DNA of 64,000 nucleotides from NCBI GenBank assembly GCA_018003315.1, contig JAGNEJ010000010.1, forward strand, positions 11,044 to 75,043, written 5' to 3'. This DNA comes from Verrucomicrobiales bacterium. GTDB taxonomy: Bacteria > Verrucomicrobiota > Verrucomicrobiia > Verrucomicrobiales > V1-33. Every line of letters begins with the position of its first letter. The stretch's first letter is position 1. This document shows, piece after piece, positions 1-9,667 of the stretch. Made by a program: the position numbers and the translations under genes. The notes beneath the pieces are model-generated. The model was given only the letters and a program-made list of their open reading frames with translations. It made no database searches and was not told the origin of the DNA.

Positions 1-1
1 C

Positions 2-343
2 CGCGATTCCGAAGGAAAAGGCCGCCCCGATGGCGAGGTCTGCCTGAAGCTCGCCCACGGCCGCGCCCGCCTCATCGCCGTTTCCGCCGGCAAGCCGCTG
101 GCCTTCGCTGGCTGGGATGTCGTCGAGCAATGTGCCAAGCCCACCCGCCTCGCCGTCCACGCCGGAGCCGTCTATTATTTCCTCTGCGAAAACACCGCCG
201 CCGCGCGCGACCTCTCCACCCAGCTCCACTGGCGCCCGCGCTCCGATTTCTACGGCGAAAAAGGCTTCGGCTTCGGCTTCGCCAGCCCGCACCCGATGTC
301 CCCGGACATCCAGCAACTCGCCGGCTCCCTGTTCAAAATCTAA
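2..343 (+). CDS. cmr3: Type III-B CRISPR RAMP subunit Cmr3, C-terminal fragment (5' end outside window)
   Basis: Frame is open from the window edge to TAA at 341-343. Translation reads ...AFAGWDVVEQCAKPTRLAVHAGAVYYF...FYGEKGFGFGFASP..., a Gly-rich C-terminal RAMP loop. It sits directly upstream of cmr4-cmr5-cmr6. Confidence 0.55.
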   Translation, partial: RDSEGKGRPDGEVCLKLAHGRARLIAVSAGKPLAFAGWDVVEQCAKPTRLAVHAGAVYYFLCENTAAARDLSTQLHWRPRSDFYGEKGFGFGFASPHPMSPDIQQLAGSLFKI

Positions 344-368
344 CCTCAACCATCCAGCACAGCATCCC

Positions 369-1280
369 ATGAAATCACACCTCCTCACCCTCTACACCCG
401 CACCCCGCTCCATGTCGGCTGCGGCACCTCCGTCGATGTCGTCGATCTCCCCATCATGCGGGAGCGCATCACCAATTTCCCCGTCATTCCCAGCACCAGC
501 TTGAAAGGGGTGCTGCGCCAAGCCGGGCGCGACTATGCAAAATCCGACGGATCTGTCGGATCCGCCAAATACACACTCGCCGTGAACGACGTCCTATTCG
601 GCAACAAGGACGACGTGCAAAAAGATGCGGACGGCAAAGAGAAATTCCACGCCGGCTGCCTCCAGATCATGGAGGCCAAGCTCCTCGCCTTTCCCGTGCG
701 CTCGCTCGCCGGTTGCTTCGCCTGGCTCACCTGTCCCGCCGCCCTCCGCCGCTTCCAGCGCGACTCCGGCAAGACCTTCACCATCCCGGATGTGGCCCGC
801 GACCAAGCCATCGTCTCCAACGGCTCCGAACTCGTCGTGCAAGGCCAGAACATGGTCGTCCTTGAAGAATACGCCCTGAACACCGGCAACGAAGGCCATG
901 GTGACGTGGTGGCTGGTTTGAAGGATCTCGTCGCCGACTCTCTCTGGTCCGACAAACTCGCCAAGCGCCTCGCCATCCTCCACGACGAGGACTTCCAGCA
1001 CTTCGTCTCCACCTGCACCGAGGTCGTCGCCCGCATCGCAATCGACCCGGCAACGCGCACCGTGGGTGGTGGCGCTCTCTTCAACCAGGAAAACGTCCCC
1101 TGCGAGGCGCTCTTTTACAGCGTCTTGACGGTCCTCGCCCCGCGCCGCAACGACAGCGCCGCCGCGCCGGATGACTCCCTCACCGCCCTGTTCAAAGCCA
1201 ACGCCACCCTCCAGATCGGCGGCGACGAAACCACCGGCCACGGATTCTGCTCGGTCCACCACCAAACCCTCAACGCCTGA
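369..1280 (+). CDS. cmr4: Type III-B CRISPR RAMP backbone subunit Cmr4
   Basis: Internal ATG at 369 in the 117..1280 ORF. N-terminus is MKSHLLTLYTRTPLHVGCGTSVDVVDLPIMRE...PSTSLKGVLR, and the C-terminal G-rich loop is IGGDETTGHGF. These are classic Cmr4 RAMP motifs. Confidence 0.85.
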   Translation: MKSHLLTLYTRTPLHVGCGTSVDVVDLPIMRERITNFPVIPSTSLKGVLRQAGRDYAKSDGSVGSAKYTLAVNDVLFGNKDDVQKDADGKEKFHAGCLQIMEAKLLAFPVRSLAGCFAWLTCPAALRRFQRDSGKTFTIPDVARDQAIVSNGSELVVQGQNMVVLEEYALNTGNEGHGDVVAGLKDLVADSLWSDKLAKRLAILHDEDFQHFVSTCTEVVARIAIDPATRTVGGGALFNQENVPCEALFYSVLTVLAPRRNDSAAAPDDSLTALFKANATLQIGGDETTGHGFCSVHHQTLNA

Positions 1281-1287
1281 TCCCGCC

Positions 1288-1734
1288 ATGAAGAATCTCG
1301 ACCAAATCCGCGCCCACAACGCCCTCGCCCACAAGGACACAATCGCTGCGTCCCAGGGCGGCGGCGACGCCATCAGCGGCTTCCCCATGCTTGTCCTCAC
1401 CGACGGTCTGCTCGCCGCCCTTGCCTTTGCCTGTGAGTGGAAAGACTCGGACCAACAACCACCTGGAGATGCAGATTTGCGACGGCAGATTACACGGCCT
1501 GATCGCGAAGGTCGTAATCGCCAACAATGGCAAAAGCGCAAACACGAAGGCGAATACACCGTTGCCCGAGCCATCGCCGCGCATCTCCACACCCAAAACA
1601 ACCGCATCACCGCAGCCGCCACCGCCGACGACCTCGTCGCCGAACTCGCCGCCCAGGACAGCGACATCCTCCTCCGCCGCGCCACCGCCGAGGCCCTCGC
1701 CTTCCTCAACTACCTCAAACGCTTCGTCGCATGA
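1288..1734 (+). CDS. cmr5: Type III-B small subunit Cmr5
   Basis: About 148 aa and helical. Starts MKNLDQIRA and ends ...RRATAEALAFLNYLKRFVA. Its position between cmr4 and cmr6 is typical of Cmr5. Confidence 0.7.
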   Translation: MKNLDQIRAHNALAHKDTIAASQGGGDAISGFPMLVLTDGLLAALAFACEWKDSDQQPPGDADLRRQITRPDREGRNRQQWQKRKHEGEYTVARAIAAHLHTQNNRITAAATADDLVAELAAQDSDILLRRATAEALAFLNYLKRFVA

Positions 1735-7670: not shown

Positions 7671-7702
7671 TCCGTCAGATCTCACACCCCGCTTCCACCG
7701 CC

Positions 7703-8887
7703 ATGTCTCACACCACCCTCATCCACCTCGTCAGCGGCGAGCGCATGCAGAACCTGCTGCCCTTGCTCGCCCTCAAGCCGCGCACCGTTTTCCAGCTTTG
7801 CAGCGATTCCCCGGCCATCCTCGCCGCTGCCGAGCACACCGCCGCTGCCGCCCGCCAGGCCGGCATCGAGGCCGATTTCCGCATCGAAAAACTTCCCGGT
7901 GCCACCCCCACCACCCAGGACGTCCGCCACGCCCACAAGCAGCTCCTCTCCGTCTTCCCCGGCGCGGTTGTCAACATCACCGGCGGCACCAAACTCATGT
8001 CGCTGGGTGCCTACCTCGGTGCCAACGAGTTCCATGATTCCCCCATCCTTTATTGCGACACCGCCAACCGCACCTTCGTCCAGGTCGGCGAAGCCCCCTT
8101 GCCGCCGCACATGAAATCCTTCCCGGAAGTCGCCTCCCTGCTCACCGTGCCCGTCGTCATGGCCGCCCAGGGCAAGCCCTTCCGCGAGGACGCCATCACC
8201 CCGGACCTGCTCGCCTTCGGCTCCGCCGCATGGGATCTCCGCTCACGCGACCACGAATCCATCGCCGCCTGGACCTCCCGCATCCGCAGCGCCGTGCCCC
8301 GCAAAAACGGCCGCGTCGAGAAAAGCAAACCGCTGCTCCGGCGCTTCCTCGCCACCCCGCTGCCCTTCCCGGAGAGCCCCGCCGCCATCGACTACCTCGA
8401 CGCCGCCGTCGCCGCCGGCCTGCTCGCCGTGGATCCCGCCGGCGCCGTCCGCATGATCGCGGATCCCAAACCCTCGTCCGTCGAACGCGTCTCCAACCTC
8501 CTCGATGGCGCATGGCTCGAACTTGCTGTCGCCGCCATGGCTGGAAATGCCACTCGCTACGGCGACCTCCACTGGAGCGTCCAGCCGCCCGACCAGACCG
8601 GGGCCGACTACGGCGAAACCGACCTCATCGCCGTGGATCGCCAAAAACTCAACCTCGCCGTCATCTCCTGCAAAACCAGCACCCAGCACGTCTCCACCCT
8701 CGAACACCTCTCCTCCTGGCGCGACCGCGCCCGCACCCTCGGCGGCTCGCACGCCGCCGGCCACCTCTGCCTGTTCCGCGCCAAATCCTCCGACGAAGCC
8801 GCCCGCCTCCACGCCATGGGCCGCACCATGGGCCTGCACGTCCACATCAGCGCGGAAATCCCCGCCCACTTCGCCGCCACCTCTTAG
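7703..8887 (+). CDS. can2: CARF-PD-(D/E)xK nuclease, Card1/Can2 family (DUF1887-like)
   Basis: N-terminal CARF motifs are LIHLVSGERMQNLLP and NITGGTKLMS. The C-terminal restriction-endonuclease-like core is YGETDLIAVDRQKLNLAVISCKT. Confidence 0.75.
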   Translation: MSHTTLIHLVSGERMQNLLPLLALKPRTVFQLCSDSPAILAAAEHTAAAARQAGIEADFRIEKLPGATPTTQDVRHAHKQLLSVFPGAVVNITGGTKLMSLGAYLGANEFHDSPILYCDTANRTFVQVGEAPLPPHMKSFPEVASLLTVPVVMAAQGKPFREDAITPDLLAFGSAAWDLRSRDHESIAAWTSRIRSAVPRKNGRVEKSKPLLRRFLATPLPFPESPAAIDYLDAAVAAGLLAVDPAGAVRMIADPKPSSVERVSNLLDGAWLELAVAAMAGNATRYGDLHWSVQPPDQTGADYGETDLIAVDRQKLNLAVISCKTSTQHVSTLEHLSSWRDRARTLGGSHAAGHLCLFRAKSSDEAARLHAMGRTMGLHVHISAEIPAHFAATS

Positions 8888-8924
8888 ATCCGTCAGATCT
8901 GTCGGATCATCTCTTCCACCACCC

Positions 8925-9551
8925 ATGCCAACCACCCTCGTTGCTGTCTCCGGCATGTCGCCCGCCATCCTCACCGAAGCCCTCTGGGCCCTCGCCGATG
9001 AGGAAACCGCTACCGTGCCGGACGAGGTCGCCTTCGTCACCACCGTCACCGGTGCTGCTAGGCTGGAGGAGCAACTCTTCACCCCGCGCCCGGAATGGGG
9101 CAGCCTCACGGTTTATGAAAACCTGCGCGCCTCCCTCGGCTCCGCGGACCACCAACTCATCGGCGCCGGCACTCCCCAAATATTCTCCATCAACGACGGC
9201 AGCGCCGACCGCGCCCCCCACCGAAGCCTCACCGGGCATTGGGATGCTTCCAACCTCACCGCCTACCCCACTCCAGCCCTCACGTTCTGGTTCACCACGC
9301 GTTTCCTTGCCGTCATCCCGGTTATTCTGATCGGCCTCATCCTCGTCGCCTCCGCCACCAAACAGTGCCGAATTCAAGTTGGCATCGAAGGCCTCGACAA
9401 TACCATGCGCGACCACCTCCGCCAAGGCACCCTCGGTTTGCACGGGAAATCATCGCTCCCCCCGCTGAACGCCAAACCCTCATCGCGAAACTTTCGCCCG
9501 CCCAGCGCTAACCGAACGCCCGCGTCACGTTTCCTGATGGAATTCGCTTGA
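8925..9551 (+). CDS. Stand-alone CARF-domain protein (NE0113-like); possible ring nuclease, regulator or decayed remnant
   Basis: Starts MPTTLVAVSGMSPAILTEALWAL, matching the Cad1 N-terminal CARF motif. A hydrophobic strand follows, then ASATKQC where the other three CARF proteins have GGxKxMS. About 208 aa with no effector domain. Confidence 0.5.
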   Translation: MPTTLVAVSGMSPAILTEALWALADEETATVPDEVAFVTTVTGAARLEEQLFTPRPEWGSLTVYENLRASLGSADHQLIGAGTPQIFSINDGSADRAPHRSLTGHWDASNLTAYPTPALTFWFTTRFLAVIPVILIGLILVASATKQCRIQVGIEGLDNTMRDHLRQGTLGLHGKSSLPPLNAKPSSRNFRPPSANRTPASRFLMEFA

Positions 9552-9594
9552 GCCGCCTCATCGCAGGGCTACACTTCGCCGCGTTTGTGCGAAT

Positions 9595-9667
9595 GCCAGT
9601 TTAGCTCAGTTGGTAGAGCAGTTGATTTGTAATCATCAGGTCGCCGGTTCGAGTCCGGCAACTGGCT
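9595..9667 (+). tRNA. tRNA-Thr (anticodon TGT)
   Basis: Hand-folded cloverleaf. Acceptor is GCCAGTT/AACTGGC, D arm GCTC-AGTTGGTA-GAGC, anticodon loop TTTGTAA, T arm GCCGG-TTCGAGT-CCGGC. No encoded CCA. Confidence 0.85.

Follow-up and report, generated by a model that had tools for sequence, protein, structure and literature searches.

Type III CRISPR loci in which the signal of Cas10 is answered by Cad1 (also CAAD), a CARF-adenosine deaminase, are the closest described systems to the locus presented here, which lies at the left edge (positions 1-9667) of a 64,000-nt stretch of DNA from a Verrucomicrobiales bacterium (contig JAGNEJ010000010.1); this whole stretch is called the window below. 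As a hexamer, Cad1/CAAD converts ATP to inosine triphosphate (ITP) on binding cyclic tetra-adenylate (cA4) or cyclic hexa-adenylate (cA6) (PMC11645235, PMC12993439). The pairing of Cad1/CAAD with Csx1, Card1 or Csm6, and layered or cA4/cA6-partitioned signalling by cyclic oligoadenylates (cOAs), have already been published (NAR 2026, PMC12993439): 76% of 121 CAAD systems carry extra CARF effectors (Csm6, Card1 or Csx1) downstream, and in Thermoanaerobaculum aquaticum the CAAD and Csx1 responses are additive, CAAD answering cA4 and cA6 and Csx1 answering cA4 only (PMC12993439). In a survey of type III loci, multiple effectors were common and normally shared cA4, while three effectors in one locus were rare (Hoikkala et al. 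2024, PMC11229360). The statement in the first-pass annotation of the window, which was made from the letters alone, that such loci usually carry one or two cOA effectors is fair in this respect.

The window locus, from a Verrucomicrobiota bacterium, belongs to the ordinary type III-B CRISPR loci but is armed to an unusual degree. The explanation that best accounts for the whole, and one that we hold with high confidence, is a Cmr locus with three intact CARF effectors, a truncated NE0113 gene, and a deleted cas1-cas2-array segment. Like the published Cad1/CAAD type III-B loci, such as those of T. aquaticum (CAAD-Csx1), Limisphaera ngatamarikiensis (CAAD) and Bacteroidales (Cad1) (PMC12993439, PMC11645235), it has a cas10-cmr operon followed by a CARF-adenosine deaminase and more CARF effectors. 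Unlike them, it has both a Csx1-type RNase and a Can2/Card1-type nuclease beside Cad1, three effectors in all; it has an inserted VapBC-like candidate pair, and it is without the 3′ part of the NE0113 gene, cas1-cas2 and an array. No Nudix or other partner was seen in the window locus. It also resembles the multi-effector loci of Hoikkala et al. 2024 (PMC11229360) in having several effectors with different targets and a presumed shared cA4 behind one Cas10. However, the rare trio of that survey, which did not cover Cad1, is Csx1, Can1-2 and Cam1 (three loci), whereas the trio of the window is Csx1, Cad1 and a Can2/Card1-like protein.

All components of the locus come from characterised families and the concept of multiple CARF effectors is published, and the locus therefore opens no new question. 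Its value is that of a natural example of one of the rarer three-effector combinations, and of cassette gain and loss in which a sensor gene, the adaptation genes and the array have apparently been deleted while the interference and signalling genes are intact. What is mainly added here is the truncation of the locus and the recognition of its fourth CARF gene as a stump. It may serve as a test case for type III-B modules surviving on CRISPR RNAs (crRNAs) borrowed in trans, and for whether three effectors are additive or not.

Cas10, the Cmr subunits and three CARF effectors

The genes are arranged in the order cas10/cmr2, cmr3 (starting upstream of the window), cmr4, cmr5, cmr6, cmr1, a VapBC-like pair, csx1, cad1, can2/card1-like and a truncated NE0113 gene. 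In the window, all of them are on the + strand, and neighbours are separated by short gaps or overlap slightly. The window holds the 3′ two-thirds of this type III-B (Cmr) interference and signalling operon. Its relatives and copies were fetched as public contigs, labelled L0xx below. Searching 185,579 species genomes for Cad1 yielded 57 loci, nearly all from Verrucomicrobiota. Cmr4 is encoded on four public contigs, and the longest contig carrying the locus, L001 (16.9 kb), is 99.99% identical to window positions 1-9631 and adds 7.3 kb upstream.

The cas10/cmr2 gene is located in this added sequence, at L001:3642-6350 (902 aa), 917 bp upstream of window base 1. Its product matches the PADLOC Cas10 model (5e-81) and Pfam Cmr2_N and palm2. 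The motifs CMDGDDMG, IYSGGDDVLAM and, at the N-terminus, LHDPPHK are conserved in 12 relatives, and because the GGDD and DGDD motifs are both present and conserved in this way, the cyclase is predicted to be competent. Residues 19-20 are an H-D dipeptide within the conserved LHDPPxK, which may correspond to the catalytic HD of Cmr2 as in the P. furiosus protein; no HD-domain profile match was obtained for the window-linked Cas10. Upstream of cas10 on L001 are unrelated genes (Sde182_NH-like, MoxR ATPase and GDPD). The first-pass annotation had sought a cas10/cmr2 gene with a GGDD motif upstream of the window, and this is the gene that it anticipated; on this point its reading is not refuted.

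The Cmr3, Cmr4, Cmr5, Cmr6 and Cmr1 subunits are encoded together in one operon, so that the cmr3-cmr4-cmr5-cmr6-cmr1 module on one strand, as originally read, is confirmed by profiles. Cmr4 and Cmr6 exceed NCBIfam cutoffs, and Cmr3 and Cmr5 exceed Pfam cutoffs; the full cmr3 gene (416 aa, L001:6359-7609) matches Pfam Cas_Cmr3 at 5.4e-44. Profile support is marginal in the case of cmr1, and the gene is assigned mainly from its position and from its relatives: homologues with 60-63% identity are placed after cmr6 in L032 and L040.

Among the three effectors, the second is, as judged from its sequence, unambiguously Cad1/CAAD, with an architecture nearly identical to the solved Cad1/CAAD structures. 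In addition to the PADLOC model (Table 1), it matches Pfam A_deaminase (1.9e-37) and Cas_NE0113, and it is aligned over its full length to PDB 8z3p/8z3k (E~1e-229), 9ebt and 9c67. An N-terminal CARF domain with GGFKTMS (within LSGGFKTMSAA, 6132-6164) is joined to a C-terminal deaminase TIM barrel with its metal and catalytic residues, found in HCHLGG (6600-6617), HAGE (within HAGEND, 7218-7235) and NTDN (7476-7487). HxH, HAGE and NTDN are identical to those of the solved proteins.

The first effector is a CARF-HEPN protein of the Csx1/Csm6 type. The PADLOC match covers residues 12-379, that is, its full length, and both the CARF loop NPTSGTKQMS (4965-4994) and the HEPN motif RNDLMH (R-N-x-x-x-H, 5706-5723), which is of the R-x4-6-H form, are conserved in seven relatives. 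The protein is alike to Csx1/Csm6 (TIGR02710 / Cas_Cas02710) in these three features but differs in that its scores against curated models are below cutoff and that no solved structure was detected for it by sequence in PDB. An alternative TTG start is found at 4632.

The third effector belongs to the Can2/Card1 family. Its CARF domain is of the Card1 type by Pfam CARF_Card1 (28 bits, cutoff 24.6) and is matched by phmmer to Can2 (7bdv, 4.5e-6), and GGTKLMS is found within TGGTKLMS (7979-8002). An AlphaFold (AF2) model built on 52 homologues has a predicted local distance difference test (pLDDT) score of 95.6 and a predicted template-modelling (pTM) score of 0.91. Foldseek aligns the whole of the model with Can2 7bdv (E 2e-19), VC1899 1xmx and Card1 6xl1 at template-modelling (TM) scores of 0.64-0.73; for the set of 7bdv, 1xmx, 6xl1 and 8q3z, the matches are again full-length (TM 0.57-0.73), as expected of a PD-(D/E)xK (DUF1887) fold. 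The nuclease motifs GxWLE, GETD and SCK lie within stretches 8507-8530, 8612-8635 and 8663-8680, respectively; E273, E305, D307 and S322-C323-K324 are invariant in the 52 homologues, and the window protein retains all of them. Thus, the protein is alike to Can2, Card1 and VC1899 (DUF1887) in its full-length fold and its cA4-type CARF loop GGTKxMS, but the identity is only 15-17%, and the Verrucomicrobiota clade has the motif E...GETD...SCK and not D...ExK. This clade motif is a putative variant of the PD-(D/E)xK signature in which Ser replaces an acidic residue, and the residues are putatively catalytic.

All of the three outputs read in the first-pass annotation are hence borne out: the HEPN RNase by RNDLMH and the PADLOC CARF+HEPN model, the adenosine deaminase by PADLOC, Pfam and the PDB alignments, and the PD-(D/E)xK-like nuclease by PADLOC, the model fold and CARF_Card1. 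Profiles and structure uphold its reading of the locus as a type III-B Cmr module whose CARF effectors respond to cOAs and have three different outputs. The CARF genes do lie downstream of cmr1 on the same strand, as it said, although the VapBC-like pair that intervenes at 3829-4541 was overlooked. Coordinates of all features are listed in Table 1.

Table 1. Features of the type III-B locus in the window (positions within the 64,000-nt stretch)
Feature	Length	Position	Strand	Support
cmr3, C-terminal part	113 codons	2..343	+	Pfam Cas_Cmr3 2.5e-8 for the fragment
cmr4, Cas7-like RAMP backbone subunit	303 aa	369..1280	+	TIGR02580 198.4 bits (cutoff 87); Pfam RAMPs 1.1e-23
cmr5, small subunit	148 aa	1288..1734	+	Pfam Cas_Cmr5 44.6 bits (cutoff 21)
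cmr6, RAMP	395 aa	1731..2918	+	TIGR01898 104.1 bits (cutoff 51.1)
cmr1, RAMP (marginal)	264 aa	2915..3709	+	Pfam RAMPs 22.4 bits (cutoff 22.1); TIGR01894 21.9, below 28.65
Variant palindrome copy after cmr1		3747..3768	.	inverted repeat search
VapB-like antitoxin candidate	105 aa	3829..4146	+	weak DUF6364 match, 24.3 bits, below cutoff 27.3
PIN-domain (VapC-like) toxin candidate	132 aa	4143..4541	+	Pfam PIN 27.7 bits (cutoff 23.6)
Csx1/Csm6-type CARF-HEPN ribonuclease	393 aa	4650..5831	+	PADLOC Csx1/Csm6 CARF+HEPN 1.2e-33
Cad1/CAAD, CARF-adenosine (ATP) deaminase	611 aa	5835..7670	+	PADLOC CARF5--CARF_ADA 1.6e-167
Short GATC-rich imperfect palindrome spanning the cad1 stop		7648..7684	.	inverted repeat search
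Can2/Card1-family CARF-nuclease	394 aa	7703..8887	+	PADLOC CARF4--CARF_PDDEXK 1.7e-23, full length
Sister palindrome copy right after the card1-like stop		8887..8908	.	inverted repeat search
5′ remnant of NE0113/TIGR02584 CARF gene with unrelated tail	208 codons	8925..9551	+	TIGR02584 55.7 bits, below 80.65
tRNA-Thr (TGT), present 3′ locus boundary		9595..9667	+	ARAGORN; Rfam tRNA 70.8 bits

How common such a set of effectors is can be seen in the 57 related loci, whose synteny was scored by tblastn; many of the contigs are short, so that the following counts are lower bounds. The combination of cad1, card1-like and NE0113 is found in 11 of the 57 and that of cad1 and NE0113 in nine, while csx1, cad1, card1-like and NE0113 are all intact in only one, L031 (Methylacidiphilum). 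L040 has the gene order of the window, but its card1 is reduced to a fragment; card1 is split in L032, and cad1 is cut to 118 codons in L062. Instability of the effector region is plain to see, and the combination in the window, although rare, is an unsurprising permutation of a set of cassettes that recurs.

The fourth reading frame and the 3′ boundary

The fourth open reading frame (ORF) is what remains of the 5′ end of a gene, with a frame that runs on into unrelated sequence, and not an effector-less CARF sensor, because its profile match is partial, it has no ligand loop and no full-length homologue, and parts of the modelled fold are missing. Matches to the NE0113/CARF5 profiles are limited to residues ~3-70 of the ORF, corresponding to TIGR02584 positions 2-65 of 209. 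It is aligned colinearly with relatives to residue ~97 (...INDGSADRA, nt ~9215), after which the alignment collapses. The NE0113-like part is thus codons 1-~97 (8925-~9215), with a weak resemblance that may reach ~9300; with 24 intact homologues as queries, tblastn found no NE0113 homology in any frame past ~9248. Within the first ~97 residues, the identity to NE0113/TIGR02584 proteins is 37-55%, and the β1 loop (S/T)G(M/L)SPAI(L/V)TE is included. In contrast, intact NE0113 genes in 24 related loci encode 340-415 aa with an invariant GGRKTMG loop and an extra C-terminal domain of ~130 aa, and score 193-201 bits against TIGR02584 over positions 1-209, while the ORF of 208 codons is without GGRKTM, DRLTHVLV and the whole C-terminal domain. 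Neither of the two marks of the family, a full-profile score and GGRKTM with the C-terminal domain, is thus seen in the fourth ORF. No G[GT]xKxM-type motif is found anywhere in it, hence no GGRKTM ligand loop. In the fold modelled for an intact homologue (pLDDT 88), the retained part comprises β1-α1-β2-α2 and an insert, and α3, β4, the ligand loop, α4 and β5 are missing. A search of the whole ORF against 5.8 billion proteins gave no full-length homologue except itself, and a sequence search of PDB and BLASTP against the Cad1 CARF domain gave only noise.

Accordingly, the GGxKxMS-type signature once ascribed to the fourth protein, which had been taken as a CARF protein with no effector domain, is absent and the gene is truncated. 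Of the stack of four CARF proteins, three remain as intact effectors and the fourth is only an NE0113/TIGR02584 stump. The profile and structure searches for CARF domains suggested in the first-pass annotation find them in three of the four proteins, the fourth not being an intact CARF protein.

A quite different reading is that the 208-aa ORF encodes a new functional chimera, in which half a CARF fold is fused to a hydrophobic, membrane-like tail (FLAVIPVILIGLILVASA) and which works, for example, as a decoy or a membrane protein. Indeed, the frame stays open for 110 codons past the end of homology, its G+C content at third codon positions (GC3) is 0.72, it includes a hydrophobic stretch of 18 residues, and contigs from four sequencing runs all carry the ORF in identical form. 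However, the contigs carrying it are near-identical copies of one strain, so that their agreement is uninformative on selection, and long accidental ORFs are common in the 63-68% GC sequence here. The tail resembles none of the 5.8 billion proteins nor any related locus: the 350-bp sequence has no relative among the fetched loci or elsewhere in the window, and its tblastx matches are low-complexity noise rich in P, S and T. Furthermore, the fragment is without α3, β4, the ligand loop and β5 of the modelled CARF fold. We consider such a chimera extremely improbable.

NE0113 proteins were predicted to be CARF regulators with a winged helix-turn-helix (Makarova et al. 2014), and the NCBI name of the family is ring nuclease. 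The NE0113/TIGR02584 family has 3152 database matches at E<=1e-10 (protein P0002). Its C-terminal domain of ~130 aa consists, in an AF2 model, of three β-strands, three helices and a terminal strand. This domain is unmatched by Pfam, NCBIfam, PDB sequence and Foldseek searches, in which the CARF part alone is recognised. Probably it is a winged-helix domain, as suggested by the prediction of Makarova et al. 2014 and by the pattern of modelled secondary structure.

Relatives with an intact NE0113 gene have it between the CARF effectors and cas1-cas2, and an array of 8-32 repeats comes next. For example, L010 has cas1 at 13037-14041, cas2 at 14052-14414 and 30 repeats from 14623, and L050 has a VapBC-like pair, cas1 at 7505-8554, cas2 at 8575-8919 and 27 repeats from 9116; L040 and L011 are arranged similarly. 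The repeats of these arrays are 37 nt long with a common terminal core, GCCGAAAGGCAYTGRAGAC, and this core is absent from the window even when up to 3 mismatches are allowed. No CRISPR array was found by three methods in the 64-kb window, nor any in the 7.3 kb upstream on L001. No cas6 was found in the window, and PADLOC gave no Cas matches outside the locus; an Rfam scan of the window gave only two tRNAs. A search of 8800-10000 and of the whole window for repeats or for frameshifted pieces of cas1, cas2 or the 3′ part of NE0113 found nothing beyond ~9248. The simplest reading is that a deletion or rearrangement with its breakpoint inside the NE0113 gene removed the 3′ two-thirds of this gene, cas1, cas2 and the array, because relatives carry them at this place while here the homology stops before tRNA-Thr. 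Possibly, the locus instead acquired an NE0113 fragment that was already truncated. As it stands, the module lacks its own array and adaptation genes; either an array at another site of the genome supplies it in trans, or it has recently been orphaned.

The array and Cas searches agree with the first-pass annotation that the window has no CRISPR array, cas10/cmr2, cas6 or cas1/cas2, cas10 being just upstream; the array that it hoped to see upstream as well is not in the extra 7.3 kb of L001. The tRNA-Thr at which it ended the locus is indeed there, but this end reflects the 3′ part lost relative to relatives. No duplicated tRNA fragment, as might mark an island integrated at tRNA-Thr, was found upstream. 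The relatives whose flanking aminotransferase is most similar (up to 79% identity) have no flanking synteny in common with the window. L001 stops at 16897 (= window 9631), inside the tRNA-Thr gene, while contigs L006 and L007 continue through tRNA-Thr into the aminotransferase gene; the end of L001 may be due to a difference between strains or to a break of the assembly at the tRNA.

Proposed signalling and competing readings

A mechanism can be proposed from the characterised families, to which the locus itself contributes its gene content, the intact motifs and a GGDD-bearing Cas10. A crRNA-loaded Cmr complex would bind a complementary transcript, upon which the Palm domains of Cas10, with GGDD intact, would make cOAs, most likely cA4. 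The cOA would then bind the CARF domains of the three intact effectors, whose outputs would be cleavage of RNA by the HEPN RNase, conversion of ATP to ITP by Cad1, and cleavage of DNA and/or RNA by the Can2/Card1-type nuclease. Combined, they would give an additive growth-arrest or abortive response. The CARF domains of Cad1 and of the Csx1-type protein may also degrade the signal (cA4). By analogy, a cA4 signal shared by all three effectors is the default expectation, because co-resident effectors in the survey normally share cA4.

Several points weigh against this account of a Cmr locus with three intact effectors and a deleted 3′ end. The Card1-like protein has S-C-K where Can2 and Card1 have (D/E)-x-K, and it scores below the cutoff of Pfam Card1_endonuc (18.5 vs 26.4), which many of its homologues exceed. 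The Csx1-type protein is below the curated cutoffs of Pfam (26.8 vs 27) and of NCBIfam TIGR02710 (63.2 vs 83.9; 2.1e-17). The deletion is deduced from non-syntenic relatives whose cas10 identity is at most 74%, and no closely related genome was found that has these flanks together with a complete 3′ end. Finally, neither an array nor cas6 was found in the visible 64 kb and 7.3 kb, and crRNA loading of the complex is hypothetical.

Another reading is that the whole locus is a decaying, non-functional relic, whose Cmr and effector genes have been unused since the array and adaptation genes were lost and have not yet accumulated mutations. Such decay would fit the loss of cas1, cas2 and the array, the truncation of one gene, the lack of an array, cas6 or any defence-model match elsewhere in the window, and the frequent decay of effector cassettes in related loci (L040, L062 and L032). 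On the other hand, the reading frames of all ten remaining genes, the 902-aa cas10 among them, are intact and keep the catalytic residues that are invariant in their families; at 0.77-0.87, the effectors have the GC3 usual for coding sequence here, and the genome is visible only over 64 kb. Type III-B loci can use arrays in trans, which also counts against a relic. We regard it as unlikely, though as the strongest of the competitors. The idea of the first-pass annotation, in which four functional CARF sensors stand behind one Cas10, partitioning between cA4 and cA6 gives layered outputs, and the fourth protein is an effector-less sensor or regulator, is very unlikely. Three intact CARF effectors with different outputs are present, Cad1/CAAD answers cA4 and cA6 while the co-resident Csx1 of T. 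aquaticum is cA4-only, and intact NE0113 genes accompany Cad1 in ~24 related loci; but the fourth ORF here is without the β4-loop GGRKTM and everything after residue ~97, with a sub-cutoff score and no full-length homologue. Moreover, surveyed co-resident effectors nearly always share one activator, cA4, and ligand preference is not readable from these sequences.

Between these two in our estimate, and thus still doubtful, is a tiered variant in which the array-less Cmr module remains active on crRNAs made elsewhere, with Cad1 answering cA6 and cA4, and Csx1 and the Can2/Card1-like protein answering cA4 only. If this were true, the locus would be among the most heavily armed natural Cad1 loci, acting on RNA, DNA and the ATP pool at once, and it would be resistant to cA4-specific viral ring nucleases.

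Inserted elements, junctions and flanking sequence

Between cmr1 and csx1, positions 3829-4541 encode a candidate VapBC-like toxin-antitoxin pair. The stop of the antitoxin candidate overlaps the start of the PIN gene by 4 nt (ATGA), so that a PIN toxin gene is preceded by a small overlapping antitoxin gene as in VapBC, with an antitoxin family match below cutoff. The pair is not found at this position in related loci; the pair of L050 is a different VapBC-like pair located between NE0113 and cas1 (6724-7414).

Insertions are also found within cad1. At least seven relatives (L040:10001-12484, L042, L050:1840-4377, L051, L053, L054 and L057) have ~245-285 additional aa in frame within cad1; the insertion falls in the deaminase domain, between positions that correspond to residues ~377 and ~387 of the window Cad1, which itself has no insert. 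The insertions are free of stop codons, and the four that were scanned (L040, L050, L053 and L057) match Pfam Y1_Tnp (IS200/RAYT-like transposase) at 3e-9 to 3e-6. They may be a domesticated domain or an in-frame mobile element.

Short palindromes of the form GATCCGTC[A/C]GATC... are located exactly at the 3′ ends of cad1, card1-like and cmr1. The 11-mer CCGTCAGATCT is confined to these junctions in the 64 kb, and the 13-mer GATCCGTCMGATC is also present in five related loci (L009, L010, L012, L044 and L045). These palindromes may be cassette-junction or RNA-hairpin elements.

On the coding strand, the GC skew of the CRISPR locus (window 1-9500) is strongly negative, -0.15 to -0.33, with a GC content of 0.62-0.68, while that of adjacent housekeeping genes on the same strand (9500-20000) is ~-0.04 with a GC content of 0.57-0.63. 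This contrast in composition is compatible with a foreign origin of the locus. Between 9.8 and 62.7 kb, 46 ORFs were compared with the PADLOC defence and Cas models and none matched; those among them that match Pfam are mostly housekeeping genes. Farther downstream, a tyrosine integrase gene (49110-50135, +) adjoins a gene for an SU10-type phage portal protein (50853-52967, -), after which there are several ORFs without Pfam matches and a 51-bp tandem repeat at 55860-56041. The region from 49110-52967 onward is probably a prophage or a prophage remnant.

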